A DNA stretch of 64,000 bases from positions 32,001 through 96,000 of the forward strand of contig CAVPLT010000007.1 in the NCBI GenBank assembly GCA_963706325.1, in the 5' to 3' direction. The DNA comes from an uncultured Nitrospiraceae bacterium. Lineage in GTDB: Bacteria; Nitrospirota; Nitrospiria; Nitrospirales; Nitrospiraceae. How positions within the stretch are numbered: position 1 is the first letter of the stretch; every line of letters starts with the position of its first letter. The notes beneath the pieces were generated by a model. The model was not told where the DNA came from. It saw only the letters and a list, made by a program, of their open reading frames with translations, and searched no databases. The position numbers were made by a program, and so were the translations under genes. Positions 19,696 to 23,161 of this stretch are shown here, one piece after another.

Positions 19696-19950
19696 ATGAC
19701 TTTAGATCGTCTCGACGCCCTTGAAATTCGGATTCGTGATTTGGTGAAGCTCGTTCAGGACCTGAAGCGAAAGAATGTGTCGTTGGAAGATGAGTTGCGA
19801 CTGGCTCGGGAACGGGTCGCGGTGCGGGACGATGAGAATCGACGATGGGAGCAGGAGCGGGTCGATATTCGCTCGCGCATCGAAAAGGTGCTGGGCGAAA
19901 TTGATGTGTTGGAATGCCTGGATGAACCCAAGGAGGTGGCTTTTGACTAA
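19696..19950 (+). CDS. zapB: ZapB-like coiled-coil cell division protein
   Basis: 84-aa coiled coil directly upstream of and overlapping zapA; SD GAGG. Confidence 0.7.
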   Translation: MTLDRLDALEIRIRDLVKLVQDLKRKNVSLEDELRLARERVAVRDDENRRWEQERVDIRSRIEKVLGEIDVLECLDEPKEVAFD

Positions 19951-20239
19951 GACCATTGATGTGGAGATCTACGGCCAACGTTACAGCATCACCGGCGAAG
20001 CAGATGAGTCCTACGTGAAGAAGCTTGCCGATCTCGTCGATACGCACATGAAACATGTGGCGGCCGGACTGCGGTCCGCCACCCCGGCCAAACTGGCCGT
20101 CCTCGCGGCCATCAATATTGCTCACGAATTAATGGAGTCAGAGCGTAAGAGTCGTCAGGGCGAGGCCGACGCGGATCGCCGGATGGCATCCCTGATGGAG
20201 TCAATCGATCAACAAATGCCGTCCATGCTGTCCCGGTGA
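19943..20239 (+). CDS. zapA: Cell division protein ZapA
   Basis: TTG start after AGGAGGT; VEIYGQRYSI, LADLVDTHM, KLAVLAAINIAHEL. Confidence 0.92.
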   Translation: MTKTIDVEIYGQRYSITGEADESYVKKLADLVDTHMKHVAAGLRSATPAKLAVLAAINIAHELMESERKSRQGEADADRRMASLMESIDQQMPSMLSR

Positions 20240-20247
20240 GTTTCACC

Positions 20248-20276
20248 TTGCTTTCATATCACTCCTTTGCTATCGT
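20248..20276 (+). promoter_or_regulatory. Sigma70-like promoter at the start of the zapA-rny intergenic region
   Basis: TTGCTT-N17-TATCGT. Confidence 0.45.
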
Positions 20277-20282
20277 TTCTGT

Positions 20283-20745
20283 GTTGTATTGACCTGAGGG
20301 TCAGCAAGAGCTGGAGAGGAAAGGAAGCTTCGAATAAGGACGGAAAATTCTGAACACAGTTTTTGAGCTCTAAGAATATGGAATCGCTGAGTTTCATAGT
20401 GCTGTTCGGTGTGGTTATGGTGGCATGGGTTGACCGGCTGGCCCGTGTGTGTACGACTGTGCGACAGGTGGATGACAGCTCGGTGTTGTTAAGCAGGGAG
20501 CACATGCTGGCCCGTATACCCTCGGGCACTCTCTGCTCGGTACATGTTCCTATCCCAATCAAGCGGTCTGGTTATCTTCGCTTGCGAGGTGATAGGCGAA
20601 GTGATTCGGGTCGAGGGCGACCACCCCTCCGCTTGAATTAGCGATAGCGATTCCTCGAATCAGTCTGCAGGCTCAGAACTCAGGGTTTCTCCCTACTCAT
20701 TTACGCAGTCCTTTCCCACTCTCCGTGCTCCCCTAAACACTGGCT
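20283..20745 (+). ncRNA. Candidate large structured RNA (rny leader, or ncRNA at the usual 6S RNA locus)
   Basis: Nested complementary segments: 20318-25/20709-16, 20380-88/20646-54, 20492-500/20529-37, 20510-14/20523-27, 20559-66/20629-36. The zapA-downstream position is a common ssrS site in other bacteria. Confidence 0.55.
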
Positions 20746-20802
20746 GCGATCATTTGCAGGGTGACAGCGTGCTGTCCCGCTGCCGTAAGGGAGGTGGTTC
20801 CC

Positions 20803-22371
20803 ATTTCTCTCAGCGTCGTTGCGTACATCATTATAGGATTGGTGGGAGCGGTGTTAGGCGCCGTTGGTTATGAGTTCTTGCGACGCCGATCAGGATTGGC
20901 GCGCCGAGCCGAGGCGGAAAATCAGTCGGCGCAGGTTGTGCAGTCGGCCCAGCGCGAAGCAGAGAACTTGGTGAAAGAAGCCAAGCTGGAAGCGAAGGAT
21001 TTGGTCTTCCAAGCAAAAATTGAACTGGAGAAGGAACAGAAAGCCAAGCTCGCCGAGGTTTCTACTACGGAACGGCGAGTCTTGCAACGGGAAGAAAGTC
21101 TCGACAAGAAGGTGGCGGTTCTGGAAAAGCGCGATCAGGAAACACTCAGGCGCGAACAGGAGATCCTCAAGCGAGAGGAGGGTCTGGCTCAAAAGGAAGC
21201 GGCATGCGCCCAGGCTACGAAGCAGCATCGTGAGGCACTCGAGCGGGTGGCGAGCTTAACCGCTGAGGAAGCCAAACGGCAACTGATTCAAGAAATGGAC
21301 AGCCAGGCGCGTCTGGAAGCGGCCGGTCTTGCGAAGCGCATGCTGGAAGAGGCAAAGGAAAATGCCGATCGCGAAGCGCGAGAGATCATTTCTCTTTCCA
21401 TCCAACGCGTGACGCGCGACTATGTGAATGAAGCGACGATTTCGGTCGTGCCGATCGCGAATGACGCGATGAAGGGCCGGATCATCGGTCGCGAAGGACG
21501 AAACATTCGCGCAATCGAAGCGGCCACGGGAATCGATCTCATTATCGATGAGACGCCCGAGGCGGTCATTATTTCAGGGTTCGATCCACTCCGACGTGAA
21601 ATCGCCAAGGTATCTCTCGAACGACTCATGCACGATGGGCGAATCCATCCGACCCGCATCGAAGAGATAGTCGAAAAGGTCAAGATTGATATTGAAAAGC
21701 TCATGATCGAAGAGGCCGAGAAGGTCATCTTCGAGGTCGGTTTGTCCGATTTTCATCCCGAGTTGGTCAAGGTGCTCGGCAGGCTCAAATATCGAACCAG
21801 TTATGGCCAGAACAATTTGTATCATGCTCGAGAGGCCGCCTACATCTGCGGCATCATGGCATCTGAGTTGAAACTCGACGTCAAGCTCGCCAAGCGCGGG
21901 GCGTTGTTGCATGACATCGGTAAGGCCGTGAGTCACGAAGAAGAGGGACCGCATGCCATGTTAGGCGCGGAGCTCGCCAAGAAGTACGGCGAAAGTCCCA
22001 AGATCGTGAATGCCATTGCGGCACATCACGAGCAAGTGGAGCCGATTTGCCCGGAATCGGTCCTGGTGGCGGCGGCGGAAGCGCTGTCGGCTGCGCGCCC
22101 TGGCGCACGACGTGAGGCGTTAGAGTCCTATGTGAAGCGCTTGGAGAAGTTGGAGTCGCTAGCGACCGTTCACAAGGGTGTTCAGAAGGCCTATGCCATT
22201 CAAGCTGGACGCGAAATTCGTGTGATTGTAAAGCAGGAAGATTTGACGGACCCGGAATGTTTCCAGCTTTCTCGCGATTTGGCCAAGAAAATTGAACAGG
22301 AACTGACCTATCCGGGCCAAATCAAAGTCACGGTGATCCGCGAGAGCCGGTTTGTCGATTTCGCGAAATGA
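20803..22371 (+). CDS. rny: Ribonuclease Y (start probably ATT at 20803; alternative GTG at 20794)
   Basis: N-terminal TM, coiled coil, KH domain (MKGRIIGREGRNIR), HD domain (LLHDIGK), YAIQAGREIRV. Confidence 0.96.
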   Translation: MSLSVVAYIIIGLVGAVLGAVGYEFLRRRSGLARRAEAENQSAQVVQSAQREAENLVKEAKLEAKDLVFQAKIELEKEQKAKLAEVSTTERRVLQREESLDKKVAVLEKRDQETLRREQEILKREEGLAQKEAACAQATKQHREALERVASLTAEEAKRQLIQEMDSQARLEAAGLAKRMLEEAKENADREAREIISLSIQRVTRDYVNEATISVVPIANDAMKGRIIGREGRNIRAIEAATGIDLIIDETPEAVIISGFDPLRREIAKVSLERLMHDGRIHPTRIEEIVEKVKIDIEKLMIEEAEKVIFEVGLSDFHPELVKVLGRLKYRTSYGQNNLYHAREAAYICGIMASELKLDVKLAKRGALLHDIGKAVSHEEEGPHAMLGAELAKKYGESPKIVNAIAAHHEQVEPICPESVLVAAAEALSAARPGARREALESYVKRLEKLESLATVHKGVQKAYAIQAGREIRVIVKQEDLTDPECFQLSRDLAKKIEQELTYPGQIKVTVIRESRFVDFAK

Positions 22372-22381
22372 GTGCGTAGAC

Positions 22382-23161
22382 ATGAAAGTTCTGATGATCG
22401 GCGATATCATGGGCGAGCCAGGGCGACGGGCCGTGGCTCGCCTGCTTCCCAAGCTCATTGCCAAACACAATATCGACGTTGTGATTGGTAACGGGGAGAA
22501 TGTGGCGGGCGGATTCGGAATCACTCCGGACCTAATGGACGACCTTTTTGATCTCGGGGTGTCGGTGATCACCACCGGAAATCACGCGTGGGACAAGAAA
22601 GAAATTATCGAAGTGTTTCCACGTGAACCGCGTCTCCTACGTCCGGCCAATTATCCCTCTGGGGTGCCTGGACGCGGGAGTTATGTTTTTACGACGCCGG
22701 GTGGTGAGTCCTTGGGGATTCTTCACTTGATGGGACGGGCCTTCATGCCGACGCTTGATTGTCCCTTTCAGGTTGGCAAGCGAGAAGTCGAGCATCTCAA
22801 GACACAGGTTGCGGCCATCGTGGTCGATATGCATGCTGAAGCGACATCTGAGAAGATGGCGATGGCGCATTACCTGGATGGATTGGTGACGGCCGTGGCG
22901 GGCACGCATACTCATGTGCAGACGGCCGATGAGCAAATCCTTCCAAAGGGAACGGCGTATATCACCGATATCGGAATGACCGGTCCGCTCCATTCGGTCA
23001 TCGGAATCAAGAAAGAGTTGGCGATCGAAAAATTCCTCACGGGGATGCCGCGCCGCTTCGAAGTGGCACAGGGACCAACCGTGTTCTGCGCGGTCTTGCT
23101 TGATCTGGATGGGGTGCTCGGCAAAGCCGTGTCCATCGAACGAATCCGAGTGGTGGACTAA
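22382..23161 (+). CDS. ymdB: YmdB-like (TIGR00282 family) metallophosphoesterase
   Basis: GDIMGEPGR, NGENVAGGFGIT, TGNHAWD, HAEATSEK, GTHTHVQTAD; follows rny. Confidence 0.92.
   Translation: MKVLMIGDIMGEPGRRAVARLLPKLIAKHNIDVVIGNGENVAGGFGITPDLMDDLFDLGVSVITTGNHAWDKKEIIEVFPREPRLLRPANYPSGVPGRGSYVFTTPGGESLGILHLMGRAFMPTLDCPFQVGKREVEHLKTQVAAIVVDMHAEATSEKMAMAHYLDGLVTAVAGTHTHVQTADEQILPKGTAYITDIGMTGPLHSVIGIKKELAIEKFLTGMPRRFEVAQGPTVFCAVLLDLDGVLGKAVSIERIRVVD

Follow-up and report, generated by a model that had tools for sequence, protein, structure and literature searches.

RNase Y initiates the decay of mRNA in many bacteria. The leaders of pnp and rnc are long and structured and are cut by RNase III, tnaC and mgtL are leader-peptide attenuators that act with Rho, and AUU start codons limit output, as in infC and pcnB. 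To our knowledge, the leaders of rne, pnp and rnc do not enclose a long upstream open reading frame (uORF).

Here we analyse a gap between zapA and rny, the gene for RNase Y, that lies in a 64,000-nucleotide stretch of DNA (the window) from a genome most closely related, among named records, to Nitrospira and Nitrospiraceae. In an overall model that we hold with about even confidence, this gap is the ~520-nt 5′ leader of the rny message. As described in the accessible part of PMC10303841, B. subtilis rny is likewise controlled through its own leader and likewise has a very strong, structured Shine-Dalgarno sequence. However, the B. subtilis leader is ~160 nt, AU-rich and uses RNase J1, whereas the leader considered here is ~520 nt, is followed by a putative AUU start, and belongs to a genome in which RNase J was not found; furthermore, the accessible text describes neither a uORF nor a long rod for B. 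subtilis, unlike the situation here (PMC10303841). The 5′ UTR of E. coli rne is also a long structured leader of a ribonuclease gene (PMC10303841, same part). In hbs mRNA of B. subtilis, a long-range helix linking 5′ UTR and 3′ UTR loops out the ORF, modulates cleavage by RNase Y and competes with ribosomes, according to the portion of PMC5737220 consulted. There, 14 bp surround a conserved protein gene; here, ~70 predicted pairs surround a weakly constrained uORF, and they do so ahead of the gene for the nuclease itself.

Systems of the tnaC and mgtL types, and those of the SecM/MifM/RAPP type (PMC10987492, in part), likewise place a uORF before the controlled gene, which in our case is accompanied by a C-rich stretch past the stop and, in some lineages, by an R-G-x-P motif. 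However, the uORF here far exceeds theirs in length, lacks a universal motif, and has its start and stop clamped by one predicted rod. The 6S RNA (RF00013) would be an ancestral neighbour at this locus and is, like the leader, rod-like with a purine-rich 5′ side; nevertheless, the leader rod has over twice the length of 6S, encloses an ORF, and has neither a match to the 6S model nor the apical motif. Finally, infC and pcnB likewise combine a strong Shine-Dalgarno sequence with AUU. We found no description of this rny leader in the literature searched, most subscription papers being outside the reach of that search.

Results

The zapA–rny gap and its promoter

The gap is flanked on the plus strand by zapB (19696..19950; Pfam ZapB, E 1.2e-08) and zapA (19940..20239; Pfam ZapA, E 2.4e-20) on one side, and by rny (20803..22371; Pfam RNase_Y_N, KH and HD) and ymdB (22352..23161; Pfam YmdB) on the other. 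The genes rny and ymdB are likely co-transcribed, since a single RNA contig (21918-22544) reaches from one into the other. The gap was present in all 17 same-genus genomes searched and in 100 of 102 loci across the order, where its length ranges from 398 to 712 nt (of the other two loci, one gave no match and one was mis-assigned).

The initial annotation had pointed to a promoter-like TTGCTT-N17-TATCGT before the gap. We located the two elements of this pair, 17 nt apart, at 20248-53 and 20271-76; as a predicted σ70-type promoter with an extended −10 element (20248..20276, plus strand) it is nearly invariant in 17 same-genus sequences, and similar promoter-like pairs lie 3′ of zapA across the order. 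(Note that a consensus promoter scan did not report the 20248-53/20271-76 pair.) The transcript would start near 20283, and a small 5′ hairpin (20290..20303, plus strand) is paired in 84 of 85 cells over the 17 sequences. Another promoter-like site (10/12) is found on the minus strand at 20830-20857, directed back toward the leader; it is not kept in relatives and is probably a chance occurrence.

A predicted long-range rod in this genome and genus

The predicted rod spans 423 nt and comprises ~70 predicted pairs. Its 5′ arm (20308..20388, plus strand) is purine-rich and carries helices P1, P2 and P3, with pair probabilities of 0.95-1.0 and 87-100% pairing; its 3′ arm (20646..20730, plus strand) is pyrimidine- and C-rich, and the first base of this arm lies 4 nt past the uORF stop. 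The stretch 20642-20735 (C 34, G 16) falls in the top 1% of genome windows, and C exceeds G in the 3′ arm of 22 of 23 loci. Every complementary segment listed in the initial annotation is present in the sequence, the only correction being that the 5′ strand of P2, for which pairing is present, runs one base earlier, at 20358-20368 instead of 20359-69.

That annotation had described nested helices across the whole gap. In 17 same-genus sequences the outer helices are indeed conserved, with 87-100% of positions paired, but the four larger inner helices are not (42-63%). Ensemble pair probabilities separate the two sets in the same way (0.95-1.0 in the outer helices versus 0.00-0.79 in the inner ones). 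The folding energy of the whole gap was like that of shuffled controls (z −1.06; 15 of 100 shuffles equally good), whereas the duplex formed by the outer arms alone had an energy of −65.1 kcal/mol as against −38.7 kcal/mol in local shuffles, none of 300 of which was as good (z −5.4 with arms picked post hoc; z −4.9 in a fixed-window version). Eight coding controls in the arm-shuffle test gave z from −1.6 to 1.2. Covariation within the genus is nearly absent, with a single both-side change in P1-P3, so conservation at this level could be conservation of sequence.

The 5′ arm is dense in GGA at 20313-20345, with a mean of 5.9 per 100 nt in the genus versus 1.1 in the uORF, an excess that is absent in genus group g10. 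A csrA gene is present, and binding of CsrA to this putative target is possible.

The inner sequence follows the reading frame

The large branched RNA proposed in the initial annotation did not survive comparison, its branches being variable ORF sequence at the codon level and unconserved. In one test the inner domain did exceed its shuffles, but at 57% pairing and with kinship uncontrolled. The sole inner helix kept in the genus is a 5-bp hairpin at 20609..20622 (plus strand; 98% paired, 83 of 85 cells), which coincides with the RGRP codons of the uORF. Codon-type selection on ORF 20378-20641, which had been named as a competing explanation for conservation in the gap, thus holds for the inner part; it does not extend to the 3′ strands of the rod, because these lie outside the ORF and are nevertheless kept.

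The rod in other genera

The sequence of the rod is unalignable between genera. In a second genus (19 sequences), however, a long-range stem, unrelated in sequence, reaches 91.9% pairing and shows 18 both-side changes, although the sequences were hand-picked and the structure was derived from the same alignment, which favours the stem. This pairing was matched by 3 of 500 shuffles, and slid controls were 26-51% paired. The covariation that is near-absent in the first genus is therefore present in the second, and in two genera whose sequences are unrelated the uORF start region pairs with a distal strand. For a genus represented by 12 sequences, the consensus showed partial long-range pairing only.

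Across a wider set of loci, the two arms of a genome paired better with each other than the cross-genus mean in all 23 loci that were scored (six of 29 picked loci having been dropped for want of a promoter match), with a modest specificity (median z −1.5; 7 of 23 below −2). The fixed-window arm shuffle test passed z −2 in 13 of 31 loci; in a retest of 18 mostly weak loci, seven passed z −2 and three were positive. A rod is also predicted in lineages that lack the long uORF. Together, the pairing and shuffle tests indicate a rod with a large loop that is clear in this genome and of uneven strength elsewhere, and they support the earlier proposal that the long rny leader holds a conserved long-range structure that is probably regulatory.

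The predicted rod encloses a selected open reading frame

The 87-codon uORF (20378..20641, plus strand) has a hydrophobic N-terminus, a variable middle and an Arg-rich end. Its start lies inside the innermost helix, and its stop lies 4 nt 5′ of the partner strand. P2 and P3 cover the uORF ribosome site and part of the ATG with a predicted probability of 0.95-0.96 (98-100% paired). In 18 same-genus loci there were no stops among 1523 in-frame codons versus 78 and 47 stops in the shifted frames, the reference row being open by construction. Ten groups had 0-2 in-frame stops each versus 2-78 in shifted frames, in a count whose three g10 groups take in 23 of the 35 loci of g10 and omit several broken-frame ones. 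In three sister-family groups the in-frame stops numbered 7/1156, 0/437 and 0/304 versus 14-74 in shifted frames. In a less selected count, an open frame of at least 85 codons that ends 85-220 nt before rny was found in 54 of 59 named loci, these 59 being the scorable ones out of 80, as compared with 159 of 1180 local shuffles. Sequence comparison thus indicates that the uORF is kept open by selection.

The protein sequence itself is under weak constraint. dN/dS for the uORF is 0.67 in this genus and 0.46-0.86 across groups, versus 0.08 for rny, with lower values (0.19-0.45) over the first 25 codons in 6 of 10 groups; in the sister family, divergence is spread about evenly over the three codon positions, and the third shows little or no excess. 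Between its start and the C-terminal motif, the frame is shifted in 2 of 18 same-genus loci and in one of two loci of the next genus; the long uORF is missing in g9, in family f3 and in two genera of family f2; and in genus group g10a the ORF reads through the 3′ arm. The dN/dS values, the even codon divergence, the tolerated frameshifts and the lineages without a long uORF indicate that selection acts more on the open frame than on the peptide. Gene callers predict the uORF as an 87-aa protein in four clusters, and it has four database homologues; no Pfam family and no Atlas match of at least 0.9 was found for it.

The N-terminus is hydrophobic in many genera, with a hydropathy over 17 residues of 2.1-2.9 in this genus and 0.8-1.5 in g19. 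Near the C-terminus, about ten genera share an R-G-x-P motif, which most of g10, the whole of g19 and f2g47 lack. In the genome studied here the motif reads RGRP, in congeners RSRP, RRRP or RSRL; at the hairpin that coincides with this site, every member of this genus uses CGA as the first Arg codon. Three loci have the motif out of frame, and it lies ~180 nt from the rny start. In two sister-family genera (L089, L094, L091, L264, L265) the uORF carries RGSP, in one instance as HLPYRGSP, near the SecM(Ms) arrest sequence.

A very likely AUU start for rny

A strong Shine-Dalgarno sequence lies in a local hairpin and is followed by a putative AUU start at 20803-20805 (20789..20805, plus strand). 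A further hairpin lies ahead of the ribosome site (20763..20776, plus strand; 82 of 85 cells paired, two both-side changes). At the rny start position of 100 loci, inspection by eye gave 78 ATT, 17 ATG and 5 other codons, an automated count found ATT in 48 of 59 loci, and one genus has six of each of ATT and ATG. From these counts, rny very likely starts at the AUU at 20803, a start codon for which we found no report for rny in the literature searched. An in-frame GTG within the Shine-Dalgarno sequence could be mis-called as the rny start, and ATG variants are often paired with a weaker Shine-Dalgarno sequence.

For a simple anti-Shine-Dalgarno switch driven by uORF translation, folding tests gave mixed evidence. 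Against it, the mean unpaired probability of the rny site barely changed upon simulated uORF translation or loss of the 5′ arm (0.37, 0.37 and 0.34). Partly for it, in 29 of 34 loci the rny ribosome site became costlier to open once the 5′ arm was removed (the mean going from 9.9 to 11.8 kcal/mol), in a test that had no composition control and in which the rise in this genus was only 0-1.7 kcal/mol.

RNA contigs cover the leader

The expression data consist of assembled contigs of RNA runs, which give no strand, ends or levels. One contig (20576-21145) runs from the uORF into rny, although a bridging contig alone does not prove one transcript, and another (20542-20801) begins in the uORF and extends as far as the rny ribosome site. 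In one run, a single contig (20300-20727) matches the rod. Contigs begin at 20300-20344 and end at 20716, 20721 and 20727; in a run of unrecorded type a contig continues past the rod end. These data hint weakly that a read-through form and a rod-sized product both exist. One contig joins 20346 to 20754, skipping 407 nt with 34 letters on the short side; this join is possibly an artefact of reverse transcription or assembly on the rod.

6S RNA and the outgroup loci

The initial annotation had also suggested an expanded 6S RNA. This suggestion was not borne out: a search of 19800-21200 with Rfam returned no 6S (RF00013) match to E 10 and nothing credible from other families, a 6S-like gene lies on another contig, and outgroups hold 6S plus a separate hairpin region in tandem ahead of rny. 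An Rfam search of 20 related gaps likewise gave no credible match. We rejected 6S identity for the rod as well, the predicted 423-nt structure containing an ORF and lacking the 6S apical motif. The 6S-like match is on contig C4 at 878387-878461 (L001:1455-1625; 40 bits, below the Rfam cut-off), in a gene with a full rod of ~160 nt, a promoter-like site of its own and the apical motif common to full 6S. Of 19 family genomes, 18 carry such a 6S-like gene away from this locus; 6S was not found in 41 genomes of three sister families, nor in five of these when rescanned.

Of 35 outgroup-family loci scanned, 10 carry a full 6S upstream of rny, and one more is cut by the locus end. The segment between 6S and rny is structured (MFE z < −2.5 in 8 of 10), and eight of the 10 segments contain a 34-56-codon ORF, with long-range pair counts in the 10 segments mostly not above shuffles. 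Judged by position and layout only, this hairpin region would be homologous to the rod. Families f5 and f7, the only ones in which we saw the zapA-6S-rny order, have zapA, 6S, the segment and rny in that order, and ATT at the likely start; zapA was not adjacent to rny in any of five outgroup genomes checked. We infer that 6S left the zapA–rny locus in Nitrospirales, the promoter staying with the leader. Seven outgroup families have rny directly 3′ of another gene, without such a leader. By eye, the gene before rny in these seven (L122-L151, L164, L171, L173, L174, L178, L179, L182) looks rarA-type.

Discussion

The rod, with the selected open uORF inside it, would make the rny leader a translation-gated switch on RNase Y output, a reading to which we assign an even chance of being correct. 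By the geometry of the predicted fold, initiation on the uORF and closure of the rod would be mutually exclusive. Ribosomes would load on the uORF before the 3′ arm, 270 nt downstream, is made, and repeated initiation would keep P2 and P3 unzipped and leave the C-rich, untranslated 3′ arm exposed. In that state Rho or an endonuclease (RNase Y or E) would have access to the arm, which could also base-pair with the Shine-Dalgarno sequence of rny; either course would lower rny. At low uORF initiation the rod would close and hide the arm, and read-through would be favoured. Cut or terminated transcripts may be trimmed to the base of the rod, giving a stable RNA of ~430 nt. The output step, the effector and the sign of control in this scheme are what we infer. 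The genome contains rho, rnc, an rne/rng gene and csrA; no RNase J was found (no TIGR00649 match in the 96%-complete genome), and no intrinsic terminator was found 3′ of the rod.

An alternative that we regard as rather unlikely is that the leader is an RNase Y autoregulatory element in which the RNA fold alone serves as cleavage sensor, the uORF keeping the loop single-stranded or bringing the message to the membrane. The prediction of a rod even where the long uORF is missing and the hydrophobic uORF N-terminus in many genera would both suit such a leader, as would the autoregulation of B. subtilis rny through cuts in its 5′ UTR and early ORF (PMC10303841, accessible part). However, the B. 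subtilis UTR route depends on RNase J, and none was found in this genome, which is 96% complete; moreover, this reading overlaps with the translation-gated switch, and sequence cannot separate the two. Messages of type I toxins such as hok and aapA1 offer another precedent, in that pairing between their 5′ and 3′ ends silences translation. By analogy, the uORF might encode a small membrane protein with a job of its own that the rod merely silences, which we think quite unlikely. The low dN/dS over the first 25 codons in 6 of 10 groups, the high hydropathy in the genus and the prediction of an 87-aa protein by gene callers argue for this, but the frameshifts in this genus and the next, a sister family without a codon-position signal, the finding of only four homologues, and an antisense promoter-like site that is single and not kept in relatives argue against it. 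A type I toxin-antitoxin system was considered and rejected, given the length of 87 aa, the weak constraint, the tolerated frameshifts and no conserved antisense promoter seen.

Still less probable, in our estimation, is that the uORF encodes a SecM/MifM-like arrest peptide that senses membrane insertion and controls membrane-anchored RNase Y. RGSP is a proven arrest motif of Mannheimia SecM, and RGRP is not among the arrest motifs described in the consulted part of PMC10987492; the part of PMC12992588 available to us does not mention rny, RGRP or RGSP. The hydrophobic N-terminal segment together with R-G-x-P near the C-terminus in about ten genera is what such a peptide might look like, and HLPYRGSP of one relative can be set beside HAPIRGSP of SecM(Ec-Ms) (PMC7886326, in part). 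Nevertheless, the motif is lacking in most of g10 and throughout g19 and f2g47, reads RGRP here and varies in congeners; its codons overlap an RNA hairpin with a constant CGA; it is out of frame in three loci and distant from the rny start; and the downstream gene is rny rather than secA, secDF or yidC. The least probable of these alternatives, to our mind, is that the rny transcript releases the rod as an RNA, 6S-like or new, that acts in trans. An RNA contig that matches the rod exactly (20300-20727) would fit a released RNA, as would, weakly, the coverage of the gap in seven of seven RNA runs, which were chosen by this sequence, as against coverage of zapB/zapA in one; so would the failure to find 6S in 41 sister-family genomes. 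But Rfam gave no match, 18 of 19 family genomes have a separate 6S-like gene, outgroups hold 6S and the hairpin region side by side, and the sequence is unalignable between genera.

A broader and more doubtful proposal, which we offer tentatively, is that the leader constitutes a lineage-wide, sequence-independent gauge of translation: the rod would clamp both ends of a sacrificial ORF, start and stop, with a peptide product of little importance, ribosome traffic would set the level of RNase Y, and the AUU would act as a second gate, in an arrangement older than Nitrospirales that outlived the departure of 6S. The analysis also corrects the annotation of the locus, adding an ORF that had been overlooked, an rny start that is likely mis-called, and a 6S-like gene, relocated and shortened, below the Rfam cut-off. 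In the literature searched, worked-out control of the RNase Y level was found only for B. subtilis. A rod and uORF leader with an AUU start would provide a concrete, mutable model for the coupling of decay capacity to translation in nitrifiers.
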